This document shows positions 26,012 to 60,020 of a stretch of 64,000 nt of DNA, in pieces. Made by a program: the position numbers and the translations under genes. The stretch covers positions 96,001 to 160,000 of IMG/VR virus record IMGVR_UViG_3300005264_000040, one strand, 5' to 3'. The notes beneath the pieces were generated by a model. That model was not told the DNA's origin, did not search any database, and saw nothing but the letters and a program-made list of their open reading frames with translations. This DNA comes from a virus. Each line of letters begins with the position of its first letter. Position 1 is the first letter of the stretch.

Positions 26012-26092
26012 ATAGGGGTGCGTTTGACGTTCAACGGTCCTATTATATATATATAATAGAGTCGTTGCCCGTCATTTGCACCCCTTTGAATA
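26012..26092 (+). repeat. 81-bp element, copy 1, containing a 72-bp quasi-palindrome with a TA-rich core
   Basis: Exact reverse complement of 59940..60020, checked base by base. Confidence 0.95.
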
Positions 26093-26228
26093 TGTACGCC
26101 ATATTATGCTGACATTACAAAGATATTACGAACGTAAGGGTTTTCTAAGGTATGAAAAAGAGGAGAAATACCTTAATTTTCTGAAAAAAATTATGGTATA
26201 ATAATATCGAGAAAAGGAGGGTATAAGT

Positions 26229-29200
26229 ATGGCTGATGACTATGTAAATCAAATTTTTGAAAAACGAAAGGAAAATATATTATTAGATTTGCAAAATAAT
26301 ATAAATAATGTATGTAATCAATATAGCCAAATGTTGGAAGAAACAGTCTCGGGGAATTTGAATATAATAGAGGCTATGAAGAACAACGAAGACTTACAGA
26401 CATTTTTTAGGCAAACTGCTGCTGATTTGTATCACGTAGCATATGCTGCTGCTTTCGAATCCGGAGCTATTCCTTTCGTAGATAAAGTGAATCCTGAACC
26501 TGTAGGTGGAGCTTATAAATTATGGCAAGATTTTACTGCTAATTATGAAGTATTTAAAAGTCTTTGGGATGAAGACCCTAATAATTTTATAGACCTTGTA
26601 AAAAGCACATACTTAACTCCTTTAGTTGATTTTTATAATGATTTTTCAAAAGATATAAAAACTTTATGGGATTTGACTTTATATATATTAGATTGGATAA
26701 ACAAATTAAGTGATAAAATGCAAGCAGCTAATGATTTTGACCCTAAGGAAGTTAATAAAATTTTGAATAAGCACAGAACTTTGTTTTATAATGCTGCTTA
26801 TTATATGGATTATGGCGCAATTGATTTATATTATGGATTAAGCCCAAAAACATGGGAAGACTTTTTTAGTGAATTGAGAGAATATAATAATGAATTAAAT
26901 GATTTTCTAGAGCCTTATTTTATATCAACCAAACTAACGATAGGAGTTATGAACATTCCAGGTGATTTTTGTAAAGGAGGAGCTAGTGCTTCTGATATAA
27001 TTGGACTTTTGGAAGCAAAGACATCTTCTGTCAGCAATCTGACACAATATACTGCTGATGCTACAGGATTAGCAGAAGCTAATTTTACACTGAACGATAC
27101 TTTGTTTGGATTCCAATATTTTTTGTATTCAATGATGGATATGCTTTATAAAACAATAACAAATCAACCTGGAGGAAAAGCTTTCTTTTACGAATTTGTA
27201 GAAAAATATGAAGCTAAACTTCAAAACTCATACTACGAAACTATTGCAGATGATTTTAAAAGCACTTTGGACAATCAGATAAAGATAGAAGAAACAAAAA
27301 CACTTCCAGAAGATAATGAAAAACACTATTTTGAGCCTAATGAAGTACCAACAAGTAAAGTAAAAATATTGGGATATTATGATGAATCAAATAATTTTCA
27401 AACTTATGTGCTTGAAATTATACCTGCCGGAAAAAAAGTATATTTAAAACAACAAGATTGGGATGTATTAAAAGGAAGAACCATAAGTTATGTATATTCA
27501 TCTGTAGCAGGTTTATCAAAAGTATTTGAATATTTGGATTTTATCATAAATGCAGTGGCATATGCTACTGGCGATGAACAAACAAAATTAGATGTTGCTA
27601 GTACAAATGATTTTTTAGCAAAATGGTTAGAATATTCAGAAAAAAGGAAAGAAACATTCAATCAAAAAGGATTATCTGTTTTTAATACATTTGAATACAG
27701 GTTGCAATTTATGAATGAATTAGAAACATTAAAAAAAGAATTGAACGATTCTTATTACAAAGAAAACAAATATGAAAAATTTGATTCAGTTTTGCTTTTT
27801 TACAACGATTCTGTAGCTTTTTGGGAAGAGTGGAGTGCAAGGATAGAAGACCTTAGAGTTTTTTCTATTCCTGAAATTGTTGATGCTAACTCTTTGAGTT
27901 TAGAAGAAAGAGTAAAAATTTTATATAATTTTTTATTAGAAATACCTTATGTCGGATTTGTTGTGTATGTACTTGGAGTATCCACAACTTTTTATAAGGA
28001 GATGATGAAACAATTAAGGCAGGTTTTAACTCAATTTTGTAAAGATTTATTAAACCCAAGGATGTATGCATTTTTGGTAGAAAGAGCAGTACCTATACTC
28101 ACTAATTTTAAACTAGCACTAGAAACTTTTGTTGATTTTTATGAGCAGATGATAAAACCAATAATAGATTTTTTAACTAATATGGTTAATATGAATCTTT
28201 CTACAATGGAGAAAAAATTAAGAAGTTTTATTGATAACTTTCAAAAAAATGCTTTATATAGATTCGGCCTTGGAGAATATGTAGATAAATTACAAAATGT
28301 TCTAAAACTTGCAGACTGTGTTGTTAAAAATAAAGATTCAGAATTGGAATTGTTAAAAAAAGGATATGATGCTCTTATAGGAAAAAAAGTAGAAATGGCA
28401 CCTACACCTTTTTCAAATAGAGAAGAACCGGATAAAGTTGTAACTTCTAACAATAAAGTTTTAATGAGCAAAAAAGAGATAGAAACACGAACTCATATAA
28501 AGCCTCTTTCTATCACAGAAAAAGAAATGCAATTTTTATTTGGGACAGAAACAGAAGATGATTTTTTGCGTCAAATTTCAGAAATGAAAGAAATTAACAA
28601 AAAAACCACACAGAAGCAGAAACAATATGTGCCACCTGTAACGGTTTTATCTCCTGAAGTATATTTAAATGGAGATGCTGAGGAATTGCTAAGAAAAATA
28701 GAAGAAATAGATAATAGAACCGGTAATCAAGCAAGCCTTATATTAATGCAAATTGCAGCTGAAGGTTTAGATAATATACCAGACGAACCTATTAAAGATA
28801 TACCACCTGAAGCTTCTGAAGAAGAAAAACAACAAATAGAATTAGAAAATGCTAAAAGGGAATTAAAGAAAACAATAAAGAACTCACCTGATGCTGTAGA
28901 TTTTTTTGAATTTGAAGAAGAAGATTTTGATTTAGCTGCTTATTATAAAGAACAAAAAGAAAAAACTTTAGAAGAACAAAGGCAAAAAATGAAAACAGAA
29001 ATAGAAAAAGCAACCCTTCCTACAAATAAAAACGAAGTAAAAATAACAGCCGGAACTGTTATTGCTGCTAAATTAAAGAAATCAGAATTTAAACCCAAAA
29101 CAAATGTTATCATAAATAATAACAATGTACCCAAAAATGAAAATACAGAAACAAACGCAAATGACGTGTTACCTTTGGATCCTCAAGAAGTTAATGCTAT

Positions 29201-29552
29201 GGCTGGTATCAAAGAGAAGAAACAAGCTGAAGGCTTAGAATTTACTGAAGGAACTGATGAAGAATTAACAAAGACCTCTTTAACCAATACAACATTGATT
29301 ATCAATAATGTAAGTCCATCTGGTTATCCATCGCCTTCTATTGATGGAGCTACTCACCAAATGGAAGTACATCCAGCTGTAGCCCAACTAGTTAATTCTT
29401 CTTTTAACGGATTAGAATTAACTTCAGGGGTAGCAGGACAGGTATTAAGTGAAAAAAATAAAGTAGCAGCTGAAATAGTGAAAAAGACTAAAGCAATAAA
29501 AAATAATGAAGTAATAGACGTATTGGCAGCAATGAACTATTTTACTAAGTAA
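26229..29552 (+). CDS. Large helical hypothetical protein upstream of baseplate J
   Basis: 1107 aa, AAGGAGG SD, promoter TGGTATAAT at 26194..26202. No family recognised. Confidence 0.8.
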   Translation: MADDYVNQIFEKRKENILLDLQNNINNVCNQYSQMLEETVSGNLNIIEAMKNNEDLQTFFRQTAADLYHVAYAAAFESGAIPFVDKVNPEPVGGAYKLWQDFTANYEVFKSLWDEDPNNFIDLVKSTYLTPLVDFYNDFSKDIKTLWDLTLYILDWINKLSDKMQAANDFDPKEVNKILNKHRTLFYNAAYYMDYGAIDLYYGLSPKTWEDFFSELREYNNELNDFLEPYFISTKLTIGVMNIPGDFCKGGASASDIIGLLEAKTSSVSNLTQYTADATGLAEANFTLNDTLFGFQYFLYSMMDMLYKTITNQPGGKAFFYEFVEKYEAKLQNSYYETIADDFKSTLDNQIKIEETKTLPEDNEKHYFEPNEVPTSKVKILGYYDESNNFQTYVLEIIPAGKKVYLKQQDWDVLKGRTISYVYSSVAGLSKVFEYLDFIINAVAYATGDEQTKLDVASTNDFLAKWLEYSEKRKETFNQKGLSVFNTFEYRLQFMNELETLKKELNDSYYKENKYEKFDSVLLFYNDSVAFWEEWSARIEDLRVFSIPEIVDANSLSLEERVKILYNFLLEIPYVGFVVYVLGVSTTFYKEMMKQLRQVLTQFCKDLLNPRMYAFLVERAVPILTNFKLALETFVDFYEQMIKPIIDFLTNMVNMNLSTMEKKLRSFIDNFQKNALYRFGLGEYVDKLQNVLKLADCVVKNKDSELELLKKGYDALIGKKVEMAPTPFSNREEPDKVVTSNNKVLMSKKEIETRTHIKPLSITEKEMQFLFGTETEDDFLRQISEMKEINKKTTQKQKQYVPPVTVLSPEVYLNGDAEELLRKIEEIDNRTGNQASLILMQIAAEGLDNIPDEPIKDIPPEASEEEKQQIELENAKRELKKTIKNSPDAVDFFEFEEEDFDLAAYYKEQKEKTLEEQRQKMKTEIEKATLPTNKNEVKITAGTVIAAKLKKSEFKPKTNVIINNNNVPKNENTETNANDVLPLDPQEVNAMAGIKEKKQAEGLEFTEGTDEELTKTSLTNTTLIINNVSPSGYPSPSIDGATHQMEVHPAVAQLVNSSFNGLELTSGVAGQVLSEKNKVAAEIVKKTKAIKNNEVIDVLAAMNYFTK

Positions 29553-29569
29553 GAAAGGAGCGTAAAATA

Positions 29570-31150
29570 ATGTATCCTGTAGATTTTGATGTTTTTAAAA
29601 AGAATTTCTTTAATCAATTGACAATGATGTATCCTAATATCAATTGGAATGACGAAACCAGTGTTGTTAAGAATCAAATTTTAAATCCTTTACTTTCAGA
29701 ATTTGAAAAGGTTTATAAAGATTACACACAGATGTTTAATAATATAGAAAATTTGATGTATAACAATAACGATTATGCTTCAGGAGAAACTTTGGATTTC
29801 ATTGCTTCTTTATATGGATTAAAAAGAAATCCTGGTTCAAAAACCCGAGGCCTTTTAAGTGTATATATTCCTTTTGAATTTTACCCTAAAATAGAGGCAG
29901 AAGGTTCTTTGATTTTTTCTGATATTATAATTAACATTGAAGGAAAACAATATATAATTCCAAAATTACCTATGACAATATCTCATTTGAATACAGGTGT
30001 TGTACATGTTGAGTTTGAAGCTTTAGAAAACGGTTCTACAATTTTAGGAATAAACAAAAAAATAAAATTTGCTTTAAACCCTGGAGGGGCATTTCAAAAT
30101 ACAATAGAAGTCAATGCCCAAATATTAGATGTGACTTCTGGTGAAGACGAAGAAACAGATGAGAATTTTAGAAAAAGAATAAACAACATAAAAAATAATA
30201 TCTATTTAGTAAACAAGCATCAACTTATAGAATATTTTAAAGCAGAAGAGGCAATAAAAGCAGTAGATTTTATAGATAATAACAATATTTGGAATTTAAA
30301 AGGTATAATTTCACAATATAAAATAGACAGTACAACAGGTGAAATTTTATCCGAATCTGAAATAGTGAAAGTACCATATGGATATGAATTAAAAATACAA
30401 GGTCCGGTTATTACAAAATCGGAAACTAAAACTTTATCTGCAATGACAGCATCTTATTCTATAGATATAACTTCACGTTCAAAAACTGTAGTTTCTTACT
30501 TGAAAAACAATATCAGTAGATATACTAATTTTATAGATCCTTTTTATGCAGCAACATTTTTAGTATCTACAGATACCACAGTGCCTGTATTAACAAATCT
30601 TAAATATGTAGAAATAGAAGGGCCATTATTATTTCCTTTGAAAGTATTAAGACTTTTTGATAATAAAGAATTAGAATATGGCAAAGATTTTATAACTGTA
30701 GTATATGAACCTGCAAATGCATTTACCAAGCTTCAAAAAACTATTTTTATATTCAGAGAATCATTACAATCAGACATTCAAATAGAATATGTATCTGCAG
30801 ATTTTAATCGAATTGAAGAACTTTTAAAAAAATTACCATTTGTTGCAAATGCTACCTTAAGTTATTTTAATCCTATAATGGTTCAATATACTTTTAATTC
30901 AGAAAACATTCCAGATTTTTCCGAATTCCAAAGACCAGATTATACATTAACTCCAGGTATAGATATACCTTCTAATTACTTAGTACTACAAACAATGGTA
31001 TCTGCAATGTTACCTACAGGAGGTATTACTCCATTTAAACCAATACCTAATACTACCACTATCTCAGACGCTTTAAACACTTTAGGTATAGTAGATTATC
31101 CTCCTTATAAGTTTTACACCGTAGGGCAGCTTCTAGGAGGCGGAGAATGA
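29570..31150 (+). CDS. Baseplate J-like wedge protein
   Basis: ASGETLDFIASLYGLKRNPG and GEDEETDENFRKRI motifs. Confidence 0.85.
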   Translation: MYPVDFDVFKKNFFNQLTMMYPNINWNDETSVVKNQILNPLLSEFEKVYKDYTQMFNNIENLMYNNNDYASGETLDFIASLYGLKRNPGSKTRGLLSVYIPFEFYPKIEAEGSLIFSDIIINIEGKQYIIPKLPMTISHLNTGVVHVEFEALENGSTILGINKKIKFALNPGGAFQNTIEVNAQILDVTSGEDEETDENFRKRINNIKNNIYLVNKHQLIEYFKAEEAIKAVDFIDNNNIWNLKGIISQYKIDSTTGEILSESEIVKVPYGYELKIQGPVITKSETKTLSAMTASYSIDITSRSKTVVSYLKNNISRYTNFIDPFYAATFLVSTDTTVPVLTNLKYVEIEGPLLFPLKVLRLFDNKELEYGKDFITVVYEPANAFTKLQKTIFIFRESLQSDIQIEYVSADFNRIEELLKKLPFVANATLSYFNPIMVQYTFNSENIPDFSEFQRPDYTLTPGIDIPSNYLVLQTMVSAMLPTGGITPFKPIPNTTTISDALNTLGIVDYPPYKFYTVGQLLGGGE

Positions 31151-31172
31151 TGTTTTTTGATGCTCACAAATT

Positions 31173-31961
31173 TTGGGAAAAGTTATGTCTTACAACATCC
31201 GAAATATAAAAGATATGACAGAAGAATTATTTGAATTTGGGATTAATGCAAATATTAAAGTTACATTACCTGTATCTTTTTCTTATAATGCCGATACTAA
31301 AGAATATATTGGCATTGAATATGATAATGGAATAATAATTGAAAATGAAGATATTTTTGAAATTACTGAAGTTGATTTGTTTTTAGATGAGGAACTAGTA
31401 CAATCTTTTACAGAAACAACTAAACTTCCAGATAATAAATTCAAGCTCAATTTTGACGTAGAAAGCTTATTTGCTGAAGAAGAAAAAGGGATGAAATATT
31501 TTACTCTATTAGCAACAGGTCTTGTCTTTAATTTTGAAGGAGTAAAATCTTTATATGATGACTTGGATTATGTAGGTGCTAAAATATTACAAATACATAA
31601 TTTTGCTTCGATAGAAGAAGTAAGAAATGCACATCCTTTAAAAAGAGAAGATATAGCGTATAGACTTGCAACTGCAGCATTTGTGTTAAAAACAGGAATG
31701 TATTTTAAAAACAATTATTTAAATCTTTTGAGTATAATAAAAGGGATGCCTTATGCGCCAATAGGCGGAAAAATACTTGGTTATAAATATAACTCTTTAT
31801 ATGGATATACAGGAGTACAAATAGAAAGCAGAAATAATAAAAAATATTGGTTCTGGTTTTCGGGTGATTTCAGAAATAATTTATGGTATAATATTGATGA
31901 TGAAATAGAGAGGGGAGACCCACTTACTAATTTAATTGATATTGAAATTGTGAGGAGTTGA
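31173..31961 (+). CDS. Putative baseplate wedge protein (start uncertain, possibly ATG 31185)
   Basis: Follows baseplate J and precedes the fibre genes. Confidence 0.5.
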   Translation: MGKVMSYNIRNIKDMTEELFEFGINANIKVTLPVSFSYNADTKEYIGIEYDNGIIIENEDIFEITEVDLFLDEELVQSFTETTKLPDNKFKLNFDVESLFAEEEKGMKYFTLLATGLVFNFEGVKSLYDDLDYVGAKILQIHNFASIEEVRNAHPLKREDIAYRLATAAFVLKTGMYFKNNYLNLLSIIKGMPYAPIGGKILGYKYNSLYGYTGVQIESRNNKKYWFWFSGDFRNNLWYNIDDEIERGDPLTNLIDIEIVRS

Positions 31962-31966
31962 GGAAT

Positions 31967-34006
31967 ATGGATTTTTTTCCTTATGCAGTTACTTCAAATT
32001 CTACATTAAATAATTTGTTTTTGAAAGCTTATAAATATATAATGGTTCCAGCTAATTATAACGCAATAACTTCTGTTTCAGAAGTTTCTTCTTATATAGA
32101 TAAGATTTTTGATCAGAAACTTATAGTGTATAAAAATACTGAAACGCTTGATAATAAAGAAAAATTTTATAAATTTTTAGAAGAAAGTCTAGACTTGAAT
32201 ATAACTACTCTTACAACAAATTATAATATCAACAATGATACAAATATAACGGAAAATGAATATATAAACACTTTTATGAACACAGAAGAAAATAAAACTG
32301 TGTTAGGTATTTTAAGTTTAGTGTTATCAGAAGTTTCAATGTATCCGTGGTCTTATTATTCAAAAGTGGGAACAGTTTTGCTTTCGACTTATACAAATGT
32401 ATTCCCACCCAATTCCGACAATAAACATATTCAATATTTTAATAGTATGGAAGAACCTTCATGGACTGTGTTTAGTGATTTTATAAGAATTGCAGGAAGG
32501 TATATATGGAAAGAAGATACAAATGCAAATCCTGATGTTTCTGAAATAGAAGATTTTTTGAGTATTTTTGACATTTCATATACAAATAATATGATGAATG
32601 ATACTTATGAGGATGAAGGAGTATTAAATATTCTTGAGAATGCTTTGGATATCAGCAATAAAGAAATAATAGGGTTTATAATAGGTTGGAACTGGTTTTA
32701 TATGTATATATGGTGGCAGGGTTTAACTGCAATTGCAACTGCATACGGAAAAAGTCTTAACTCAACCGATAATGTGGAATTTGTATTTGACAAATGGAAA
32801 GAAATGATATTGGATGAAAAAAAATTAATAACAGTGTTTAAAAACAATTCCGAACTTCAAAATTATGTATATGTAGGAGGTTTTTTGCATAACTATGTTT
32901 TTAAAAGATTCGGAAAAATATACAAATTATACAAAAAATATTTTGATGAAAATGTAGAAGCTGAAATATTTGATAGATATCAAATAGATCAACTATATCA
33001 AGAAGGCTCTGATTTTAATGATATTTATATGGTTTTATCCTCTTTTAGAAGTGATATAAATAATTTCGTGGATTATTTTAGAACTTTAAGAACTTCTACT
33101 AATGTATTCTTAACAGAAAAATTAGGTGGATTGACAATAGATGACTATGCTGATTTTGTGCATGAACATCCAGAATATATGACAGCGCAAGATATAGCTC
33201 AAAATGCGTTATATCTTGTAGAAACTGATTCTGAAGGAAACATAAAGAAAATCTATACAAATACAGATTTTGCTTCTAAAAACCATACTCATACAGAATT
33301 TTATACAAAAAGTGATACAGTTGCTGATACTGAATATTTAATAGAGACAAAACAAGTAGAACAAAATGGTCAATTAGTTGATATATATGTACCACATTCA
33401 ATGTCAGAATTAGCTTTAGCTACACATACTCATCCTTATTTGCCAAAAGGGCAAGCAGCTTCAGGAACTTATGGTTTAATTATAGGGGATAAAATATATA
33501 GAGCAGAAGATTTCGCTTTATCAGATCACAGTCACCCTGAACTATTAAGGAAAGATCAGCCTGCAAAAGCTTCTTTGCGATTGAATGGTGTCCCTACTGA
33601 TAAATTCGCATTTTCAAATCACAACCATGATGATTTGTATTATACTAAAACAGAAGCATTAAATAATTTTTATGCTAAAAACACAACAATAAATAATTCA
33701 AATTACATTGCAGAAAATGCTGAAGGTATGAAAGGTGATTTTTATATCAACGATACATATCAAAAAGCAGAAAAAGTAAAATTTTTGTTTGGGACAGCAG
33801 CTTTAGCTGCAGGAGGCATAAATGAAATCAAAGTACCTAATCCTTTATTTTGTATCGTAAGTTTAGCCACTTCCAGTATAAGTACTACTTATCCTTCGTA
33901 TATGGTAGATAAATTTAATAATAAAATAGTACTCATGGAAGTAAGCGGAGTATCTCCAGTTGTTGTTAATTATTTGGTAGGATATATTCCAGAAGAAGAG
34001 GTGTAG
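31967..34006 (+). CDS. Tail fibre/baseplate protein with four H-x-H repeats in the C-terminal half
   Basis: NHTH, THTH, DHSH, NHNH units. ATG 31967 follows GAGGAG. Confidence 0.7.
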   Translation: MDFFPYAVTSNSTLNNLFLKAYKYIMVPANYNAITSVSEVSSYIDKIFDQKLIVYKNTETLDNKEKFYKFLEESLDLNITTLTTNYNINNDTNITENEYINTFMNTEENKTVLGILSLVLSEVSMYPWSYYSKVGTVLLSTYTNVFPPNSDNKHIQYFNSMEEPSWTVFSDFIRIAGRYIWKEDTNANPDVSEIEDFLSIFDISYTNNMMNDTYEDEGVLNILENALDISNKEIIGFIIGWNWFYMYIWWQGLTAIATAYGKSLNSTDNVEFVFDKWKEMILDEKKLITVFKNNSELQNYVYVGGFLHNYVFKRFGKIYKLYKKYFDENVEAEIFDRYQIDQLYQEGSDFNDIYMVLSSFRSDINNFVDYFRTLRTSTNVFLTEKLGGLTIDDYADFVHEHPEYMTAQDIAQNALYLVETDSEGNIKKIYTNTDFASKNHTHTEFYTKSDTVADTEYLIETKQVEQNGQLVDIYVPHSMSELALATHTHPYLPKGQAASGTYGLIIGDKIYRAEDFALSDHSHPELLRKDQPAKASLRLNGVPTDKFAFSNHNHDDLYYTKTEALNNFYAKNTTINNSNYIAENAEGMKGDFYINDTYQKAEKVKFLFGTAALAAGGINEIKVPNPLFCIVSLATSSISTTYPSYMVDKFNNKIVLMEVSGVSPVVVNYLVGYIPEEEV

Positions 34007-34010
34007 TTTT

Positions 34011-35240: not shown

Positions 35241-35248
35241 AAAGGGGA

Positions 35249-37201: not shown

Positions 37202-37221
37202 TAGAAAGGAGATTTGAAGTT

Positions 37222-38409
37222 ATGAAAAAACAAACAGTTATATTTTTGAATAAAATGAAGTCTATCATGTATAGAGCTTTCAGAAGTTTAAAAAATATTT
37301 ATAACATAGAAATCACTCAACTTCAAGAAATTCCTAAAGATGAATCAAGGGAATTTACAACTATTTACAAATCAGAGGATGCTGAAAAACTTAATGGTAC
37401 TCCTTACACAGAATTTGCCTTAAAAAATCATAATCATGATGATTTATACTATAAGAAAACAGATACAGTACAATATGCTAAATATTTGATAGACGAAAAT
37501 GGGAATCCTATATCACCAACTTCTCTTGCTCCTGTTAATCATATTCACAATGAATATTATAAAAAAGGGGAAAAAGTAAAATTTTCTTTCAGATTAGGCG
37601 GGAAAAAGTTTGAAGATTATGCAACTGCAAGCCACGAACATGAAGGATATGTAGGAATGCAAGAAATAGTTGATGCTACTTATAAACTTGGAGGACAACC
37701 AGGAACAGATTTTGCATTAGCTGAACATTCTCATGCAGATATATATCATTCTGTAGATGACACGGTTATGGATGCTGCTGTTCTTGTAGATGCAACAGGG
37801 AAGAAATATACTGCAGATTTGTTAGCAAAGAAAGATCATGAGCATGATGATTTATATTATAGAAAAGAAGAATTTGACAAAATATTTTTGAAGAAAGGAA
37901 TGCCATTTGGATTCACAGAAAAAGTTAAAGTGACAGTATATGATGTAGATGTTTCTTCAGCATCTATACAATTAGAATCAGGTTCTTATGGAACAGATTC
38001 TTTGTCACATACATTTTTACAAATACCATCTTTTGCTCCATATGTAAGGCCAGAAGCAACTGCTGTGACATCTTCTGTTTCTGGTCCTCACACTTATGAT
38101 GCGAAAGTTATGTATCTAAAAATGTCTGTCACAGTAGGTAGTTATTCTAGTATTAATCTTCCTTCTTATGTATCTAAAATAGTAGGAATAATTGGTTCAA
38201 GACAAGGAGTTAATGTAGGTTCTAATAATATTACCGGGTTCCAAAATATAGATACAGGTTATACTCCAACTTCAGGAGGATATCAAGCACCTTTATTTAT
38301 TACATGGACAAATGTTTCTAACCCTAAAAAAGTATTAGTATATGCATATCCTTTTGGTTTAGATTCAGGTGGTGCATCCTTGGTAGATTTAATTATATTT
38401 TATATATAA
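37222..38409 (+). CDS. Tail fibre with five H-x-H repeats
   Basis: NHNH, NHIH, SHEH, EHSH, DHEH. ATG 37222 follows AAAGGAG. Confidence 0.7.
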   Translation: MKKQTVIFLNKMKSIMYRAFRSLKNIYNIEITQLQEIPKDESREFTTIYKSEDAEKLNGTPYTEFALKNHNHDDLYYKKTDTVQYAKYLIDENGNPISPTSLAPVNHIHNEYYKKGEKVKFSFRLGGKKFEDYATASHEHEGYVGMQEIVDATYKLGGQPGTDFALAEHSHADIYHSVDDTVMDAAVLVDATGKKYTADLLAKKDHEHDDLYYRKEEFDKIFLKKGMPFGFTEKVKVTVYDVDVSSASIQLESGSYGTDSLSHTFLQIPSFAPYVRPEATAVTSSVSGPHTYDAKVMYLKMSVTVGSYSSINLPSYVSKIVGIIGSRQGVNVGSNNITGFQNIDTGYTPTSGGYQAPLFITWTNVSNPKKVLVYAYPFGLDSGGASLVDLIIFYI

Positions 38410-38410
38410 A

Positions 38411-38439
38411 GTCTCCCTTACAAAGGGAGACCTTTTTTT
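38411..38439 (+). terminator. Intrinsic terminator at the convergent junction
   Basis: GTCTCCCTT/AAGGGAGAC stem plus T-tract. Confidence 0.8.
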
Positions 38440-38825: not shown

Positions 38826-38849
38826 ATTTAAAAGTCACCTCCATTAAAA

Positions 38850-38890
38850 TAAAACATCCCGATAAGCTGGCAGGTACTTATCGGGATGTT
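38850..38890 (-). terminator. Intrinsic terminator
   Basis: 14-bp stem AACATCCCGATAAG/CTTATCGGGATGTT plus T-tract on minus. Confidence 0.7.
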
Positions 38891-50231: not shown

Positions 50232-50300
50232 AACCCCCTTGTAGATTTTAATATTTCATATGGTTATTATATCATAAATCAAGTTATCGATGTTAATAAC

Positions 50301-50327
50301 AAAAAACCGGGAGCATATCAGCTCCCG
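50301..50327 (-). terminator. Intrinsic terminator
   Basis: CGGGAGC/GCTCCCG stem plus T-tract on minus. Confidence 0.7.
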
Positions 50328-50333
50328 AATATA

Positions 50334-53300
50334 TTACCACATAGTTCCTTCTTTTATTTCATTGATATAATCAGAATAATCAAGTTCTCTTGTGTCTCTT
50401 TCATCGTTTATTATAGTTGTGACATACCCATAAATAACATCTATTTTCGCATATTTATTAATATAAATTTCTTTTCCGTTATCTACATATTTTATTTTTC
50501 TTATATATTGTCTTACGTTAGGATATGCTAAGAAGAAATCTTCCCATTTCAACATAGAAGATACTCCCCAACGCGGAACTCCTATTACATATTTTCCAGC
50601 AACCATTCTTACATCTTTAGAACTGTGATTGAGGAATAGAGTAGCTTTTTTCTTTATAACTTTTACTACAGTCACATTAATTCCTTTCATTATTCTATGG
50701 TGAGTTAAAATGTTTGCTAATTCCATTGGATGTTCTTTTTTACTATGATGCATTTCCATTCCTTCAATGAGATTTTCGGTTTTTATACCACAATGCTTAG
50801 GAACACTTTCTATACTATTTTCAGAAACAGAAGTTTGGAAAATGCTATTTTCTAAAACATTAGAATGAGTTACAATTATCATTAATGGTGCATTTTCGCT
50901 TAATTCAATATTTTGTTTTACGTAGGCAGATATCAAAGAATATTCAATAGGATGTTTTGCATTCCTTATTAACCATAATTGCCATTCAAAATCTTTTTCG
51001 TCTTCAGAGTGCTGTAATACATATCCATCAAAAGTTTTAGATAAATGTCCAGCCATTACAACTCTTGAACTTAACCAATTTGCAGTTTGAATATCATCCC
51101 AAAGTACTACACTTTCAATGTTTCTTTCAGAAGAAATACCTTGCCAATACAATGGAGCATTTAGAATATTCCTTTTTCTAATTGCATATTGAGTTGCAAT
51201 AGGTAAATCTATATCTATTTGCGTACTGAAATGTGACCATATTATCATATCAATTGGAATGTCTGCTTTTATGTAAGTATTGAGGTTTGAAATAGTTAAA
51301 TATGCATTATTAGGATTATTAGGCCCTGAATCGGTTATAGTTATTTCTACACCTTTTAAATCCATAATTTTATATTCTGGTTTGTTGTATTCTATTAGTT
51401 GTGCATGCGTTATAGAATTACTATTTTCATCCCTTAAAGTGTAATTAAATATTACCCCATTGCTTAAATGTTTCAAAGTTAGTTTTACATGTATGTTTTG
51501 AGAAGTGGAAGCAAATCCATTCAAATTAGTTGTAGTTCTGTTTTTGGATAATTGGTCGTATTCTAGGATTGGTTTATAGGAAGTTCCAAAAGGAATAAAG
51601 TAACGCAAAATCCCATCAAACCAACTTATAATTTGATTTATACTATAATCAATATTTAAATCAGCACTTACAAGAGGAACTTCCTTATTCCAGGATAACC
51701 TTGTAATCATATGGAATGGAGCATCCAATTGTCCAAATGGCACTTCAGAATGTATATCAAATTCTAATGTAAATTGCAAATTCTTTAATGGACCGCTTAA
51801 TGGAGTTTCTTTATATAATGTCAAATCTTCTCTATCAGTAAAATCTAGAGAAATCGCATTTCCATTTATTATTACAGGTCCAGTAGCATTCCAGTTTTCA
51901 TAATCATTTAGTTTGTGTATTGTAAAATAATTGCAAACTACATGTTGATACAGATCAGCAAACTCAAATGTGTTTTCTTTCGAAACAGGAATAACTCGTA
52001 TTAAATCTAACCATGGTTGTGGTTCTGGTTTTATATCTGTAATCTTCACCATACAGTCAATCATATTTGCATTTGAAGAAACACGTTGGATTAAATTAGC
52101 AAACTCCATATTTTTTTCTTTATGTTGCAGCCAAGACACATGAGATATTATAGTAATTTCGTTCGATAATCCAAAGTGTTTTGGAGTTGAATCAAGTTTT
52201 GTCATTTGGGTTGAACGTTGCAATTGATTAGCTAATATAACATATAAAAATCTTTCAACTAAATCAGCTGCATAAATATCCATATCTATTTTTCTTTCAA
52301 TATTTGGCCACAAACGATTTGCTTCAAATGACAATTCTTTTTTGTGTAAGTGCCAAATATCCGAAGAAACAATGTTTAAATCCCGTGTCATAAAGTATGT
52401 TCTAACAGCATCTATTATTGGTGGTTTATTATAACCTGCGTAAAAATTCATATTTTTTAAATAAATAGGTTGTAGGCTTGTTAGATTTTTTGCGTCAAAT
52501 TCTATTCCAAATTCTACTATATCTATAAATTTCTTTTTAAAGAAATTATCAGTTGATAAATCGGTTCCTACACTGTTTGATGTATTTAAAGAATCATCAA
52601 TTCTATATCTATAACCAACAATATTTTTTAATCTGAAATCAGTTTTTATACCTATAGTATGCGAATAATTAGTAGTACCCCATGTTCTAATCCTATTACC
52701 ATTAGGATCATCAATATACATACTTGCTCCATAATAAGTACTTAAACTGTTTATACCATATTTATAAACATAACCTTCTGAATCTTTAAAATAAACATAC
52801 ATAGCTGAAGCGTCAGTAAAAGGCATATAATAAGTAACATCAAACATTATCCTGTGAAATTTAAGAATAGAAAATCTTTTATACATAGGAAATTTGATAT
52901 ACCCTTTTGTAAAACCATTTTCCAAATCTACTTTTATTTCTAAACCATCTTCGGTATAATTATAAATTAATCCTTCAATTGTAGAACTGGAAGGTAGTTG
53001 TTGCTGTATCAAATCCAAATTCATTTCTTCGTAATCATTTGGTTTTACTGAATATAAAACCTCTAAATAACAATCAATAGGTACCTGTTGTGTTAGTGCT
53101 TGGTATGTTTTTATTAGCCCCGTAGGGATATCAATAGAACGTATGATTGAAGGTCTTTGAATCATGACATCTATTGTGTTTGGGTTTTGGATTTGAATGG
53201 AAAATTCTTTTAACCATATAGTATCTCTATCAATATGACTAATCCAAATCTGTACATTTTTTAAATTCGCGCTTCCTATTACTTCATAAGGCATTTCTCC

Positions 53301-56300
53301 TATCTTTATTCCATTTACATATGCTTCATATATTTTGTTGGAATATTTTACTAAAAATACTAATTCCTCTGAATTTTGATCATTTATAACCATATCTAAT
53401 TCTGGTAATTGTGTTGGGAGATTATAATCAGTTCTCCAACCTACAATACCAATTTCGTTAGGTGGATAACTCCATTGAAATGATGTACGAGCAATATTTA
53501 ACCCCATTTTTTTTATTGAAATATTATGTAGATCTGGTTCAAATCCAACATAGAAAGCTGTATCATTTGAAAAACCTAAGAAAACTCCAAATTCAAAATC
53601 AGGATTATTCATTAATTTCTCTTTATCGATTCTGAAAACAGTTACGTATTTTATTTCAGAATCAAAATCATTCATTGGATTTATCTGTGCAGAAACTGGC
53701 AAGTTATATTTCCATGAACCTCTAAAATTAAAATAATACCAAACTAACATATAGTCCCCATGGGATACATGCTTTATTTTTTCAAAAGTATTTAATGTTG
53801 GATCTATATTAAAAATACAGATAGAACCATCACTTTCGTCCTTATAATAATTAATATTTGGAGTTAATTTACTCCATGGATAAAAAGCAAATGAATCTAT
53901 AGGAGTTCCAAAATATATTTCAGCATCAAAAAAAGGTGCCCCATTTACAATATTCAAATATATTGGATGACAATAAAACATATCTAAAGAATGTGTTCCT
54001 ACTTGGCTAACATAAGCTTCCATTACATTTTCAGTTTTAGAATATTGAGAAACATCTATATCAAGGACTTCAAGGTTCAGCCATGCTACTATATTTTCCA
54101 TAGTTTTTAAAATAATGCCTATAACAGCAAATGTAGATATGTAACCAGCAAAAGAGAAAGATTGAACTTTTATATTTGTAAGTTCATTAAATTGATAAAA
54201 ACCATCAGTTAAATCTCCTTCAATTCTAAGATTATTTACATACATAAATATACGGCCATCTTCTTCTTTTTTTAAATGGAGATAAATAGAATCTCCGTCT
54301 TTTAAAAAATTTAAATAATCAAGCACATCTTGCGCATTCGTTATTTCAATGTCTGTATATACTCCATCTTTCCTATAATATAAACGTTGATTTACTATAA
54401 GAGGATTCCCATCTTGCACATTAGTAGTTTCAAAAGTATATACAATAATATTGTCATAATAAAGCATATAAGTTCCATTAGGTTTCCAATTTGGATTATC
54501 AAATTCATATATTATACCTATTTTTTTTATATCGTTATTTTTATAATTTTTCAATTGATAAACAAAACCGAATTCTTTGAATTTTTCAACTGTTAATTTT
54601 TTTGGCAATGTATAATTATTATTGCTATAATAATCGTATGTCCATGAAATAATATTTGGATACATATAAATCTTTTCGAATAAAGCATTTTCATTAAAAT
54701 ATGTTCCATAATAATGATTTTCAATTGGGGCATGACCCCACATAAAGAAATGAGTTTCATTTACTTTAGGGAATTCTGTTAATCTTTGTTTCAAATTAGA
54801 ATTTTTTGTCTCGTTTTGTGTAAAATGCACTACTTTACAATCAATTGGTATTTCTTCTTTGTTTCCTGAAATCATTATCGAACTTTCAAAATATATATCG
54901 TTTATTTCAAGTTTAACTCCAAATTTATAATCGGCAGAACGTGAATACCTTACTGAAGTATATGCTATACCATAAATTCTATCTGTATCATCTACATAAG
55001 TAGTAATATCAAAAGATGCATACTCATTTTGTTCATCTATTGATAAAATTTTGAAATAATATTTTTCGTTTATTTTTGATATTTTCATTACTACTTGCTC
55101 GTCGTACAAAGGATCGAACCAAAAAGTTTCATCTCCTATTGATATAAATCTTCCCGAAAAATAAGGTTTGTTATAAGAATTTCCATTGTTCAATGTAAAT
55201 GCAATGTGCTTTCCTTCCCATGGATTATCAAAATTATCACTTAGCAAAAACCATAACCTTATATAAGTATATGTGTTTGAATTATAATTTTCATGATTGT
55301 AATAAATTTTAAAGTTTTCTAGTGGTATCAAAAAATTAAATTTATGGGCAAATATAATTTTATTTTTAGACCAAGAATAAGGCCATGCAGCTGGTCTTAT
55401 ATTTGAAAATTGGACTTCATATTCATTGTAATAATCAATGTAATTTTCATAATCACTCCTGTAATCGGTTTTTGGAGTAGCTGCCATTTTTCCTACAGTT
55501 GTTTGTTGGAACATTTCAGGTAATATAAATGTATTGCTCATCCTTGGCATAACGATACTTTTTAAGGAACCTCTATCTTTAAATTTTACATACAATTTTG
55601 TTGTTTGTGCGGAAAAATCATAACGTGATTCATATCCTATTGTAGTTATGTAATTATATTGTTCTAAAGCATCATGAATTTCAAATTCTTTGAAAAATAT
55701 TCCATCTACATGATAATACCATCTTTCATATTCATCTCTTTTTATACCTATTCTGAACGTATCCCCTGCATGCAATGACATTAAATGCTGATTAATAGGA
55801 TGATCCGGATTATCATAAAAAATAGAATCAGTATAAACATTTCTAGTTGCAATTATCCTATCTACAGGTTTTTCCTGGTTGTTGTTTGTAGTACCAATTT
55901 CAAATTCAAAATATTGTGGTGGAACGCTATCTGTATATTTATTAAAATTATCGCAATCAAATGTAATTCCTAGCAAACTCATTTGCCAATTTTCATAAGT
56001 GAAATCTTCATTGATTTGAATTTCTAAACTTACTTCTTCTAAATCTTTTAATATTAATGGAGTATGATTCCAACCATCTTGCCATGTTCTTAACATAAAA
56101 TCATACCATGACCAAAGACTTCTATCCCCATCTTTTTCTATTATTAATGTTTGAACAAACTCCGAATTACTTATTCTACTCCATGTAGGGGCTAACTCAA
56201 AATAATGCACTGTACCGTTATAATATCCTCCATAATCTCTATAATCTCCCGCAAAAAAACTTGTAGCTATAGGAGTATATACATTAGCTAAATTTGGCAT
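50334..56300 (-). CDS. Giant (1988 aa) modular fibre/adhesin with lectin-like domains separated by stalk segments
   Basis: Domains homologous to those in the 2814-aa protein. C-terminus YVTTIINDERDTREL. Confidence 0.65.
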   Translation of the reverse strand: MPNLANVYTPIATSFFAGDYRDYGGYYNGTVHYFELAPTWSRISNSEFVQTLIIEKDGDRSLWSWYDFMLRTWQDGWNHTPLILKDLEEVSLEIQINEDFTYENWQMSLLGITFDCDNFNKYTDSVPPQYFEFEIGTTNNNQEKPVDRIIATRNVYTDSIFYDNPDHPINQHLMSLHAGDTFRIGIKRDEYERWYYHVDGIFFKEFEIHDALEQYNYITTIGYESRYDFSAQTTKLYVKFKDRGSLKSIVMPRMSNTFILPEMFQQTTVGKMAATPKTDYRSDYENYIDYYNEYEVQFSNIRPAAWPYSWSKNKIIFAHKFNFLIPLENFKIYYNHENYNSNTYTYIRLWFLLSDNFDNPWEGKHIAFTLNNGNSYNKPYFSGRFISIGDETFWFDPLYDEQVVMKISKINEKYYFKILSIDEQNEYASFDITTYVDDTDRIYGIAYTSVRYSRSADYKFGVKLEINDIYFESSIMISGNKEEIPIDCKVVHFTQNETKNSNLKQRLTEFPKVNETHFFMWGHAPIENHYYGTYFNENALFEKIYMYPNIISWTYDYYSNNNYTLPKKLTVEKFKEFGFVYQLKNYKNNDIKKIGIIYEFDNPNWKPNGTYMLYYDNIIVYTFETTNVQDGNPLIVNQRLYYRKDGVYTDIEITNAQDVLDYLNFLKDGDSIYLHLKKEEDGRIFMYVNNLRIEGDLTDGFYQFNELTNIKVQSFSFAGYISTFAVIGIILKTMENIVAWLNLEVLDIDVSQYSKTENVMEAYVSQVGTHSLDMFYCHPIYLNIVNGAPFFDAEIYFGTPIDSFAFYPWSKLTPNINYYKDESDGSICIFNIDPTLNTFEKIKHVSHGDYMLVWYYFNFRGSWKYNLPVSAQINPMNDFDSEIKYVTVFRIDKEKLMNNPDFEFGVFLGFSNDTAFYVGFEPDLHNISIKKMGLNIARTSFQWSYPPNEIGIVGWRTDYNLPTQLPELDMVINDQNSEELVFLVKYSNKIYEAYVNGIKIGEMPYEVIGSANLKNVQIWISHIDRDTIWLKEFSIQIQNPNTIDVMIQRPSIIRSIDIPTGLIKTYQALTQQVPIDCYLEVLYSVKPNDYEEMNLDLIQQQLPSSSTIEGLIYNYTEDGLEIKVDLENGFTKGYIKFPMYKRFSILKFHRIMFDVTYYMPFTDASAMYVYFKDSEGYVYKYGINSLSTYYGASMYIDDPNGNRIRTWGTTNYSHTIGIKTDFRLKNIVGYRYRIDDSLNTSNSVGTDLSTDNFFKKKFIDIVEFGIEFDAKNLTSLQPIYLKNMNFYAGYNKPPIIDAVRTYFMTRDLNIVSSDIWHLHKKELSFEANRLWPNIERKIDMDIYAADLVERFLYVILANQLQRSTQMTKLDSTPKHFGLSNEITIISHVSWLQHKEKNMEFANLIQRVSSNANMIDCMVKITDIKPEPQPWLDLIRVIPVSKENTFEFADLYQHVVCNYFTIHKLNDYENWNATGPVIINGNAISLDFTDREDLTLYKETPLSGPLKNLQFTLEFDIHSEVPFGQLDAPFHMITRLSWNKEVPLVSADLNIDYSINQIISWFDGILRYFIPFGTSYKPILEYDQLSKNRTTTNLNGFASTSQNIHVKLTLKHLSNGVIFNYTLRDENSNSITHAQLIEYNKPEYKIMDLKGVEITITDSGPNNPNNAYLTISNLNTYIKADIPIDMIIWSHFSTQIDIDLPIATQYAIRKRNILNAPLYWQGISSERNIESVVLWDDIQTANWLSSRVVMAGHLSKTFDGYVLQHSEDEKDFEWQLWLIRNAKHPIEYSLISAYVKQNIELSENAPLMIIVTHSNVLENSIFQTSVSENSIESVPKHCGIKTENLIEGMEMHHSKKEHPMELANILTHHRIMKGINVTVVKVIKKKATLFLNHSSKDVRMVAGKYVIGVPRWGVSSMLKWEDFFLAYPNVRQYIRKIKYVDNGKEIYINKYAKIDVIYGYVTTIINDERDTRELDYSDYINEIKEGTMW

Positions 56301-56306
56301 ATTCTA

Positions 56307-59300
56307 TCACTCCCAATGTAAAGAATTATCATTTTGAATTTCATCTAAATCTCTTGGATCATTAATTACAACTTTTGCATAAGTATAATAAATATCTAAT
56401 ACACCTTCTGCGTTTTGATATGTTACATTGCCATTTTTAACAATACGTCTTACTATATCTTTATCTAATAAATTTTGTACAAGTTTTTCATCTATTTTGT
56501 ACAAATAAGCCATACTATAAGAATCTAAATTTTCTTCCATTCCAGGTAATGTAATGATTTTATCTGAATAATTCACAAATTTTAAAGCTTCTACTTCTAA
56601 TACCAAAACGACTTGTGAATCTATTTCATTTTTTTCTCTGTAGAAAATATGAACATCAGAATAAAGTTTCCTATAACTCATTGTAATTGGAATTGTTGTA
56701 CTTATTATTTCATTTTGCAATTCTTTCTGAATCGCATATTTTGCATCTATAATTTGAGGTAATTTGTGACTAAGTATAAGTTGTAATTCTACATTGTTTT
56801 GCAATATTCCATAATTACTGTTAAATGTGTTTATGTTTATATCATCAATTATCTGAGATTTAGAATAAACACTTAATAATTTCATTTTTGGATTATCGTT
56901 TATAATCTGAGAATTTATTGTGATTGTTTTTTTGATTTCATATTGAAGTTCCATTAATATATTTTTACTTTTGTTTATAGTTTTTAATATTGTTAAAGCT
57001 TTAATTTGGTTATTCCTAAACAAATGATAAATAGGTCTTTCTACAACTGTAGTATAAACATTTTTTTCTACGAGAGTTACTATTTTATTATGTGCTTCCA
57101 AAATTATACTTCTTAATTTTGAAGTTGCATATATTGCGTTTATTGTGTTTGATTTCATAATTTCTTTTAAATATAAATCCATTTGCAGATTGATCATCTT
57201 TCTCATATTCAAAATAATATCTGAGCAAAATTCAACTGCTGTTTTTGAATAAATAGAATTATTTGTTCCTATTCCTTTTGTGTCTAGGATTCCTAACAAT
57301 TTAGAATAAGAACCAACTAACATTGTATCTTTCGCTATATATTGAGTTTCCAAATAAAGCTTTTTTCTTTCACTATGATAAATTGTGCATTCTATGTTTT
57401 TTTCATGTTTGACGATTTGTTTCACTCTGCTATTAAAACTTAAAAATTTGGTTTTTAAGAAGAATAGATATAATTGATAATACTTAGGTAATTCCTTCAA
57501 AGGAGTTGTTCTTATTAAGAATTCCGGATAATCTCTAACATCGTTATAAATAGCCCACATTGAACCATGTATAAAATAAATTTCCTTATTTGGATTATAA
57601 CGAGAAAATTCAAACCAAGCTGGAGTTTCTACTCCATATACAAAAGAATTTGTTGTGTATTCTTGCTCAAAAAGCACATCAGTTCCTTCAAATTGCAAAA
57701 CATGATAAGCTGGAATAGCAACTTTCTTTCCTCTTAAATTTACAGTTATCGTTGAAGAAGTTGGATTTACAACGTTTGTTGAAGGAATATATTGAATTTC
57801 ATAGGCTACAGCCCCTATTTCTATTTTATTCACAAAAGTAGATTTAGCTATTGCTTTTACATTTTTATAACTAACAGTGTTAAATAGCAAATGTGTATTT
57901 AAATTATTATTTGATGAAAAGGTACCACACAAAATCCCATTAAGTTCTAAATTCCATTTTGCTGTAATATTTTCATATATATCCATGCCTAATTCTTGTG
58001 AAACTACTTTAAAAATATCAGCTAATATAGGAGCTTTTGGTCGTGGTAATATTATCATATCAGATTCAAAATAATTAGATATTTTAGATACTATAGAAGT
58101 ATAGTAAATATCAATAAACGCTTTTTGTAAAGGTGAAACTTTTTTTAACCAAGAATAAATTCCTCTATAATTATGATCGTCATAAAAAGCTACTTCAGAT
58201 ACTATCGTTTTCTTTTTTAAGAAAGTTAATGAAGTAGCAACATCCAAGTTGTTTTCTTGGGTTATTATCCTTGCTATTTTAATATCTAAAAATTTCTGCA
58301 TTCTATAAAACTTTGATATTATTGCTCCAATAAAAATAGAAACATCTTCTATTTTAGAAACTCCAACTTTTAAATCTTTTTTTGTTGATAAATTAGGCCA
58401 CAAAACATATGCTGTGAAATCTATATTTGGTATGTATTTAGGAGCAAAAATATAAACACTAGCTGGATGTGCTTTGTCTGTATCTGTTCCTACAGGTATG
58501 ATTGCATTAGGATAGAAAATTTGATACCCTTTTAAAAATACAATATTTCCCCAAGTATCACCATGTCCTAAATAAATCAAACCTTCCATAAACTTGCTAT
58601 ATGAATGCAAAGAGTCATAAATTTCAAAAGAATCATACCCAGAAAAAGCTAATAATTTATAAGGATCAAACCATGTTCCGTAAAAATAAGAATAATTATA
58701 TTTAAATGGTTCGGATATAGGAACTATTCTTTCTCCATCATCTGACGGTTTTACATATATTGTAGAACGTCTTGTTCCGGATTTTGCAAAAACAGGCAGA
58801 AAATTCGGATTATATTGTACTATTGCTGGTTGTGGGAAAAAACCTTGCATGTAATCAGGCAAGAAACCAAATAAATCAGTCATTGATTTTTTATCTTTTA
58901 CTGTTATTTCCTTTGTGCTTAAATCTATATTCAAAAGATATACAAATCTATCTGAAGTTAAAATTAACCTTGTATTACCTACCCAAGCACCTACATAAGG
59001 TGTATTTAAAATTAAAGCAAAACCGTAATCATCTATTACGGTTGCAGGTCCCATATCATATCCAGTAACATGCCAATCATTAAAGTCTTGCCCAAAACTT
59101 ATATATCTTATTTCTTTTGAAGTATAGATAGAGTTAGATGTTGCATTTATAATCAACATCTTATTATTAGGAGAAAAAACTATAGGAGAACTTACCATGT
59201 AAGGTGGAAACCCACCTATTAACCTTACTTCTCCTGTTCCATTATTAATTTCTATCAAATAAGTTTCTGGAGCTAACCTGTTGAAAAAATACATATACCT

Positions 59301-59702
59301 TTCGTTAGAAAAGAAAGGCACAGGGATTAAACCATTTGGAATATCTATCTCAAATGGAAAGTCAAATCTGTAAGGAGTAAAAGATGTTAATGTTGGATCT
59401 TGAATTTCATCAAGTCTCAACAACGTAATATGATCAGAAGCTATTTCTAAAGTACCAGATACATTATTTCCTGAAACTTGTCCAGGAAAGTTTCCAATTC
59501 TATAAAAGTTTAAGTTCCTATCTTTTATGTAATCATATAATAAAGCATTAGGTTGTATCTCAATTTGGAATGTTCCAGTGCCAGCATATGGATACAACCA
59601 CATTTTATTTAAATCATCACTGCTTCTAACTATACCTATATTTTCTTTCCCGGATACAAAATGGATACGGTATCCACCAAAATTATATATCATATCCGCC
59701 AC
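56307..59702 (-). CDS. Modular fibre/adhesin (1131 aa): propeller-like head, stalk, C-terminal module
   Basis: C-terminus YAKVVINDPRDLDEIQ. Promoter TGATATAAT at 59725..59733. Confidence 0.65.
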   Translation of the reverse strand: MADMIYNFGGYRIHFVSGKENIGIVRSSDDLNKMWLYPYAGTGTFQIEIQPNALLYDYIKDRNLNFYRIGNFPGQVSGNNVSGTLEIASDHITLLRLDEIQDPTLTSFTPYRFDFPFEIDIPNGLIPVPFFSNERYMYFFNRLAPETYLIEINNGTGEVRLIGGFPPYMVSSPIVFSPNNKMLIINATSNSIYTSKEIRYISFGQDFNDWHVTGYDMGPATVIDDYGFALILNTPYVGAWVGNTRLILTSDRFVYLLNIDLSTKEITVKDKKSMTDLFGFLPDYMQGFFPQPAIVQYNPNFLPVFAKSGTRRSTIYVKPSDDGERIVPISEPFKYNYSYFYGTWFDPYKLLAFSGYDSFEIYDSLHSYSKFMEGLIYLGHGDTWGNIVFLKGYQIFYPNAIIPVGTDTDKAHPASVYIFAPKYIPNIDFTAYVLWPNLSTKKDLKVGVSKIEDVSIFIGAIISKFYRMQKFLDIKIARIITQENNLDVATSLTFLKKKTIVSEVAFYDDHNYRGIYSWLKKVSPLQKAFIDIYYTSIVSKISNYFESDMIILPRPKAPILADIFKVVSQELGMDIYENITAKWNLELNGILCGTFSSNNNLNTHLLFNTVSYKNVKAIAKSTFVNKIEIGAVAYEIQYIPSTNVVNPTSSTITVNLRGKKVAIPAYHVLQFEGTDVLFEQEYTTNSFVYGVETPAWFEFSRYNPNKEIYFIHGSMWAIYNDVRDYPEFLIRTTPLKELPKYYQLYLFFLKTKFLSFNSRVKQIVKHEKNIECTIYHSERKKLYLETQYIAKDTMLVGSYSKLLGILDTKGIGTNNSIYSKTAVEFCSDIILNMRKMINLQMDLYLKEIMKSNTINAIYATSKLRSIILEAHNKIVTLVEKNVYTTVVERPIYHLFRNNQIKALTILKTINKSKNILMELQYEIKKTITINSQIINDNPKMKLLSVYSKSQIIDDININTFNSNYGILQNNVELQLILSHKLPQIIDAKYAIQKELQNEIISTTIPITMSYRKLYSDVHIFYREKNEIDSQVVLVLEVEALKFVNYSDKIITLPGMEENLDSYSMAYLYKIDEKLVQNLLDKDIVRRIVKNGNVTYQNAEGVLDIYYTYAKVVINDPRDLDEIQNDNSLHWE

Positions 59703-59799
59703 CTCGTTCTTTTCTTTTCACATTATTATATCACACAAAAAAGTTAATATGCTAATAACAGTTTTCGGATACTTTCTTAACAAAGAGGACATATGTACT

Positions 59800-59817
59800 T
59801 AATATGGCGTACATATT
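59800..59817 (+). promoter_or_regulatory. Operator-like motif TAATATGGCGTACATATT
   Basis: Identical to the minus-strand copy at 26089..26106. Confidence 0.6.
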
Positions 59818-59939
59818 TCAATGGAAATATCACTGTAATGTGCATAAACAGTACTTTTAAACGTATGGTCTTGACATTTACATACCACTCTTAGAAAGGC
59901 ATTTCTATACTGTTTATTATACGATCGTCGCAAATCCGC

Positions 59940-60020
59940 TATTCAAAGGGGTGCAAATGACGGGCAACGACTCTATTATATATATATAATAGGACCGTTG
60001 AACGTCAAACGCACCCCTAT
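59940..60020 (-). repeat. 81-bp element, copy 2 (inverted)
   Basis: Exact reverse complement of 26012..26092. Confidence 0.95.

Follow-up and report, generated by a model that had tools for sequence, protein, structure and literature searches.

Palindromes that are scattered through the genome and double as replication origins and enhancers belong to the textbook picture of baculoviruses and herpesviruses. For tailed phages, to our knowledge, no such feature is established. Here we describe a quasi-palindromic element that occurs twice, in inverted orientation, in a 64,000-nt stretch of DNA (hereafter the window) from an uncultured phage. The window comprises bases 96001-160000 of the 177,768-bp IMG/VR virus record IMGVR_UViG_3300005264_000040 (29.6% GC; estimated completeness 83%), which was obtained from a marine-sediment metagenome. 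Positions given as genome positions refer to the complete record.

In granuloviruses, the homologous regions (hrs) are imperfect palindromes scattered over the genome, conserved at the ends and AT-rich in the middle; they behave as origins in infection-dependent assays and are also enhancers (PMC3496565). The hrs of the granuloviruses CpGV (Cydia pomonella granulovirus) and EpapGV (Epinotia aporema granulovirus) resemble the phage element in that they are intergenic, dispersed, about 60-130 bp long, cruciform-prone and located in the genome of a large double-stranded DNA virus; within one genome their copies likewise closely resemble each other, and those of different species are unrelated (PMC3496565). 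The two share no sequence homology and differ in host domain and replication machinery. Unlike the hrs, the phage element has only five copies, each associated with an operon head and with an oriented second motif. Moreover, origin and enhancer activity has been demonstrated for hrs, whereas for the phage element it is a prediction.

A second parallel is offered by herpes simplex virus (HSV), in which the hairpin mir-H11 lies wholly within the viral origins (PMC7191008). This hairpin was the best Rfam match of the phage element, but the score of 30.1 bits was below the gathering threshold of 70. The HSV origins oriL and oriS share with the phage element an AT-rich core with inverted GC-rich boxes, a location between divergent genes and the presence of several copies per genome. 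They differ from it in that the Rfam score is sub-threshold, that no UL9-like origin-binding protein was recognized in the phage and that three of the five phage copies do not lie between divergent genes. The parallels with hrs and HSV origins are analogies and not homology.

Among phages, repeats at module borders are known from the Campylobacter group II phages CP21 and CP220, which have genomes of ~180 kb with direct and inverted copies and have undergone module inversion during evolution (PMC4546147). The CP21 regions are arrays of 1-2.9 kb built from 72-86-bp units with a 13-nt core, in contrast to the single nested palindromes with a TA core described here. T4-type phages carry promoter-early stem-loop (PeSL) cassettes, which are similarly short, repeated, intergenic and regulatory and promote recombination and modular shuffling (PMC2839356, PMC4122927). 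PeSLs consist of an early promoter and a stem-loop resembling a terminator, and they border numerous small genes of hyperplastic regions, whereas the phage element contains no canonical promoter or U-tract and is found only at five major operon heads. In the G segment of Mu and the C segment of P1 (Hin/Gin/Cin family), inverted repeats flank tail-fibre genes, as they do here. Unlike in those systems, no invertase gene was found in the record of the present phage, its repeats lie upstream of promoters and not inside the fibre genes, and there are three more copies.

Copy number, anatomy and placement of the element

The sequences at window positions 26012-26092 and 59940-60020 had been described in a first-pass annotation as exact reverse complements, and we found them to be 100% complementary over 81 nt. 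Also as described, each of them contains a gap-free 72-bp dyad (26014-26085 in the first) in which symmetric boxes of 8, 5 and 5 bp surround a perfect 20-bp TA palindrome and are separated by asymmetric, non-complementary spacers of 3, 2 and 3 nt. In the first copy the dyad can be extended from 72 bp to 86 bp (26007-26092). Across the 178-kb genome, the 8-mer of the outer box was counted 10 times, in every case within a copy of the element, while ~0.5 occurrences are expected from composition; the dyad is therefore far beyond chance. Folding of the copies as single-stranded DNA yielded -20 to -31 kcal/mol (z -5.4 to -8.7).

The annotation had treated the element as a pair. A search of the whole record gave five copies, R1 to R5, so this view had to be abandoned. 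The reported size of 81 bp with diverging flanks is correct for this record but not for scaffold_15 of ERZ23491059 (184,070 bp), an independent assembly of the same sample from ENA, in which the exact inverted block measures 129 nt. In the 5.3 kb by which this longer scaffold extends the record, no further copy was present.

All five copies are intergenic, and they fill five of the six longest non-coding gaps of the record. R1 (genome 3298-3369) and R2 (genome 43484-43562) lie in runs of plus-strand genes and begin 3-25 nt past the upstream stop codon, with no other terminator between this codon and the element. R3 (genome 62229-62314), which is also located in a run of plus-strand genes, starts ~60 nt past a stop codon; a canonical intrinsic terminator precedes it and the next extended -10 promoter follows it. 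R4 (window 26012-26092; genome 122012-122092) and R5 (window 59940-60020; genome 155940-156020), to which no strand is assigned, are the two window copies. They occupy the two long non-coding gaps of the window (510 and 410 bp), both of which are switch points between divergent operons as the annotation had stated. Identical and inverted with respect to each other, R4 and R5 flank two convergent operons encoding tail-fibre and giant proteins. The operons headed by the element (seven operon heads in all) contain replication, structural, fibre, giant-protein and nucleotide-metabolism genes. A perfect TTGACA-17-TATAAT promoter is located 228 nt downstream of R2. Since R3 lies between a terminator and a promoter, R2 upstream of a promoter and two copies between divergent promoters, we conclude that the element is outside the predicted transcription units.

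The sequences adjoining the palindromes are shared in part. To the left of R4, on the plus strand, lies a partial outer arm together with a module termed Y (25971-26011), which includes a mini-palindrome with a 5-bp stem. This Y module matches the copy at genome 43.5 kb to ~95%, and in the ENA assembly it also matches the right side of R5. Another outer arm, termed A, adjoins R5 (59921-59939, plus strand) and is also found at the copies at genome 3.3, 43.5 and 62.3 kb. Where A arms are present on both sides, as in R3, they lengthen the dyad to about 110-120 bp. The homology borders of the copies are heterogeneous, with mosaic and variably truncated outer edges.

When the arms were read toward the centre, two sets of spacers (alpha and beta) could be distinguished. 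Each copy carries one of each at all three positions (15 of 15), and therefore none of the copies is perfectly palindromic. With the A arm as reference, R1 has its entire 56-nt interior turned around with respect to R2 and R5, and in R3 the inversion is confined to the inner segment between the 5-bp boxes. The flips affect both arms reciprocally and produce three isomers relative to the A arm. One variant does not conform to this pattern: in the inner right box, R1, R2 and R3 have the same plus-strand base change regardless of spacer orientation. The 129-nt exact block of the ENA assembly is set in paralogous flanks with 55-92% identity. Exchange between copies, which the annotation had proposed because of the perfect identity of the pair, is thus borne out by this block in diverged flanks and by the reciprocally flipped spacers. 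The pattern shows that copies have exchanged sequence in both orientations or, alternatively, that arms were exchanged within a copy.

We searched for the element in other genomes. Exact-pattern scans of viral contigs gave a single chance match in a high-GC phage. A scan of metagenome contigs gave no match, and a scan of genome contigs gave two, both of them ordinary terminator hairpins. No hit was obtained by blastn against phage and plasmid records. The 1107- and 887-amino-acid proteins encoded next to R4 have no relatives in IMG/VR, and for the 1107-amino-acid protein and the helicase no close relatives were found among 5.8 billion proteins. By its portal protein and RNA polymerase beta subunit, the isolates nearest to the phage are Vibrio phage D69 and Salmonella phage Arash, both distant relatives (23-33% amino-acid identity). 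No loop-less palindrome was found in the first 100 kb of D69 by a strict scan, which is uninformative since the same scan recovered just one of the five copies of the present phage. The genome carrying the element is that of an orphan, AT-rich, myovirus-like marine-sediment phage.

Two-way control regions, motif 2 and promoters

In the ENA version, the gap containing R4 (636 nt) and the reverse complement of the gap containing R5 (654 nt) align over their full length, and the 129-nt exact block lies within ~270 nt of 85-100% identity. In this assembly the two regions are inverted paralogues of a ~640-bp two-way control region. Their common layout begins on the left with a leftward extended -10 site, followed by a second, oriented motif (motif 2) that ends 187 nt from the dyad centre, the Y spacer and the palindrome. 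It continues on the right with the A arm and spacer, motif 2 starting at +167 and a rightward extended -10 site. The dyad is located near the middle of the gap (at 52% and 56% of its length). R2 represents a one-sided version of this unit and R1 is similar; R3 has a palindrome with both A arms and is devoid of motif 2.

Motif 2 is ~20-35 nt long, contains a 5-bp inverted repeat with a 5-nt spacer and is situated 95-140 nt before a start codon. It is confined to palindrome-bearing control regions, is always oriented toward the downstream operon and lies 162-188 nt from the dyad. Next to R4, one copy on the minus strand (25843-25862) faces the leftward operon (start 25718) at a distance of 187 nt from the dyad centre. 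On the plus strand, a second copy (26090-26109) faces the rightward baseplate/fibre operon (start 26229); it abuts the palindrome in the window and is 167 nt from the centre in the ENA scaffold. A third, on the minus strand (59797-59816), faces the giant-protein operon (start 59702). The same oriented motif is present on the plus strand in the R1 and R2 regions (genome 3512 and 43712), and the ENA version of R5 has a sixth copy. Motif 2 is a candidate promoter for the RNA polymerase encoded by the phage itself, or a candidate regulator site.

Extended -10 promoter-like sites (TGnTATAAT) were found directly upstream of the leftward gene at R4 (25749-25757, minus strand), upstream of the gene for the 1107-amino-acid protein (26194-26202, plus strand) and upstream of the gene for a 1131-amino-acid protein at R5 (59725-59733, minus strand). 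About 29 other intergenic sites of this type lack the palindrome, among them a divergent pair at genome 102.6 kb, and the palindrome is therefore not generic promoter furniture. These ~29 sites are located 20-40 nt before gene starts (for example, window 6639-6647 and 6689-6697), so that host-type promoters seem to serve a large part of the genome. The element itself was rejected as a sigma-70 promoter: its -35-like hexamer and the closest TATAAT are 22 nt apart, and the promoter scanner gave no promoter inside it. Small open reading frames overlapping the control regions were dismissed as junk, since they have TTG starts and no mutual similarity.

Possible functions of the element

We propose, tentatively, that the element may well be a DNA-level nucleoprotein site of the hr/origin type, providing origin-like unwinding and possibly doubling as an enhancer. 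The suggestion in the annotation that symmetric boxes around a meltable core suit an origin or a cruciform is still a live reading. Like the hrs, the copies in the phage are scattered, intergenic and imperfectly palindromic, with conserved ends and an AT-rich centre. Their boxes are symmetric, but in all five copies the spacers are non-complementary (15 of 15 pairs), and this argues for recognition of the boxes as duplex DNA rather than for selection of a perfect hairpin. We infer that the site is bound by protein and melts, and that it functions as an origin or enhancer. In this picture, a sequence-specific protein, dimeric or multimeric, would occupy the symmetric GC-rich boxes, and the 20-bp TA core enclosed by them would melt or extrude. 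The small proteins encoded next to the element had no family matches. Melting or extrusion would be favoured by transcription running outward from the flanking promoters, because negative supercoils are left behind. The most likely job of the site would then be origin-like unwinding, perhaps together with enhancement of the adjacent promoters.

Several observations weigh against this proposal. No initiator or origin-binding protein was recognized in the phage. GC and AT skew change solely where the coding strand changes and do not shift at R1, R2 or R3; there is thus no origin signal independent of the coding strand, and the skew speaks neither for nor against origins. Three copies are embedded in co-directional runs of genes, where a leftward fork would meet transcription head-on. 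That copies are identical even in their spacers could be due to recent conversion and not to constraint. Unrelated hairpin families score about as high as the Rfam match (30 bits versus a 70-bit threshold). Finally, no relative carrying the element was found in the viral, metagenome, genome, phage and plasmid collections.

A bolder version of this idea, which we consider improbable, is that the phage has several palindromic origins of the type found in eukaryotic large DNA viruses, each with a TA core flanked by boxes and placed between outward promoters or upstream of them, opened by transcription-driven supercoiling together with a phage box-binding protein, and that the nested, strictly reciprocal spacer flips are footprints of strand exchange in hairpins or cruciforms. 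A phage with five palindromes serving as origins and enhancers, each heading a major operon and accompanied by an oriented second motif, would offer a compact system in which to study the coupling of replication start, transcription units and module exchange in large phage genomes.

The main rival to an origin/enhancer role is a purely transcriptional one, followed by that of a functionless linker or selfish repeat. As a purely transcriptional element, the palindrome would serve the motif-2 and extended -10 promoters as operator, upstream activating site or boundary and would have no role in replication; it might, for example, bind a phage regulator or absorb transcription-driven supercoils. 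Such a role is somewhat unlikely in our estimation, although the element always accompanies operon heads and motif 2 is in every case oriented toward the gene at its characteristic distance from the dyad. The phage encodes its own RNA polymerase, and the RNA polymerase subunits of Arash are abundant in the virion (PMC10585845); with virion-packaged relatives of the enzyme, an unusual promoter architecture would be plausible. On the other hand, the dyad lies upstream of the -10 boxes by 200-300 bp, a large distance for an operator of the bacterial type. The operons concerned span replication, structural, fibre and nucleotide-metabolism genes and do not form a single temporal class, and the copy at 62.3 kb (R3) has no motif 2.

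The mosaic and variably truncated outer borders, the reciprocally flipped spacers and the 129-nt exact block in diverged paralogous flanks would also be expected of a functionless repeat, i.e. a recombination linker at module borders or a selfish palindrome that is kept uniform by gene conversion. The copies do delimit functional modules, and precedents exist in the T4-type PeSL cassettes (PMC2839356) and in the CP21 repeat regions with two inverted modules (PMC4546147). We nevertheless regard this explanation as quite unlikely. Consistent termini and target duplications are absent, no transposase-like match (including Y1) was obtained in the record, and no copy outside the genome of this phage was found in the collections searched. 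The strict keeping of the symmetric boxes and of the placement at operon heads suggests constraint. A mobile element of the miniature inverted-repeat transposable element (MITE), repetitive extragenic palindromic (REP) or insertion sequence IS200 type was rejected: the borders are heterogeneous, the Y1 transposase profile PF01797 had no match in the record (controls were positive) and no copies were found in the other genomes searched.

It is very unlikely that the element acts as RNA, that is, as a long hairpin serving as a terminator, a processing site or a small-RNA precursor. The hairpin potential is strong, and two copies begin 3-25 nt after the upstream stop codon with no other terminator in between. 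Against this, none of the copies is followed by a U-tract, the spacers are mismatched in every copy, two copies lie between divergent promoters and one follows a canonical terminator. Their orientation relative to transcription varies, and no Rfam family reached its threshold. An intrinsic terminator or a PeSL-type cassette was likewise rejected, since there is no terminator or promoter within the element and a separate canonical terminator precedes R3.

The annotation had also proposed that recombination between the two window copies inverts the 34-kb segment between them and thereby exchanges the fibre operon that follows each control region. Identical inverted copies do flank the two convergent tail-fibre and giant-protein operons, offering potential crossover sites of 81 nt in the window and 129 nt in the ENA assembly, and CP21-type phages provide a documented case of inversion between repeats in the course of evolution (PMC4546147). 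Such a switch is highly improbable all the same. Three of the five copies are in other contexts, and the segment was found in a single orientation, the same in two independent assemblies. The promoters and motif 2 are placed on the operon side of each palindrome and would travel with the operon, so that an inversion would change nothing in cis and re-wire nothing. No match was found in the 177,768-bp record (~83% complete) to the serine recombinase profile PF00239, the tyrosine recombinase profile PF00589 or the protelomerase profile PF16684, while positive controls were detected; no invertase, integrase or protelomerase was thus identified. These searches agree with the earlier remark that no recombinase could be recognized, and the RusA noted at 8741 was verified as a match to PF05866 (E 1.8e-11). 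A protelomerase site of the telRL type was rejected because the five copies are internal, the scaffold ends lie elsewhere and PF16684 had no match.

Differences between assemblies and neighbouring genes

The ENA scaffold is 99.6-100% identical to the record over the loci compared, except at the right-hand edges of the two window copies. At the junction 26092/26093, the ENA scaffold and a Logan contig have 122 more bases (the A arm and ~100 nt of spacer). At 60020/60021, the ENA scaffold has 174 more bases, comprising an outer arm, the Y module and the motif-2 copy for the ThyX operon. Both junctions of the record are absent from the other assemblies and show a few bases of microhomology only. 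The Logan contigs of the source run (k=31) break at the repeat; one of 34,045 nt contains the extra R4 sequence, as in ENA, next to the unique right flank of R4. The extra ENA bases at R4 are only 92.8% identical to the R5 paralogue and are therefore genuine sequence of this locus and not a copy-paste product. For R1, R2 and R3, the IMG/VR record and the ENA scaffold agree exactly. We conclude that the two stretches missing from the window are either palindrome-associated deletion variants or assembly errors.

The unreproduced edges might raise the suspicion that the repeat itself is an assembly artefact, but the chance of this is negligible: all five palindromes recur with their unique flanks in the ENA scaffold and four of the sites do so in the Logan contigs examined, the depth of the element (~218 versus ~30 in the flanks) is that of a multi-copy element, and the divergence of the extra R4 bases from R5 speaks against copying. 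Palindromes of this kind can lead assembly astray, or they may be genuine hot spots of deletion. The sole internal indels of more than 100 bp that we saw between the IMG/VR record and the ENA scaffold lie exactly at the edges of these two palindromes.

To the left of R4, at 22256-25718 on the minus strand, the ENA scaffold has one gene of 1191 amino acids where the window has open reading frames of 887 and 295 amino acids, which suggests a frameshift difference between the two near 23055-23143. Immediately upstream of R1 (genome about 290-3274), a gene for a MoxR-type AAA ATPase is followed by one for a DUF2201 (VWA-associated) protein. The latter is labelled as an HNH endonuclease in PHROGs, and the Pfam matches disagree with this label. 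The early region contains a gene for a reverse transcriptase (RVT_1). Between R2 and R3, in the replication module, a protein of 2011 amino acids ends in a DNA polymerase A domain.

Two other repeats were observed. Similar GC-rich structured units are present at genome 177570-177768 and in the 5.3-kb ENA extension, and they may represent a dispersed RNA-like repeat near the assembly ends. A 41-nt direct repeat with ~80% identity occurs inside three genes of the fibre region (window 33614-33654, 37423-37463 and 37831-37871), where it probably encodes a shared protein motif.

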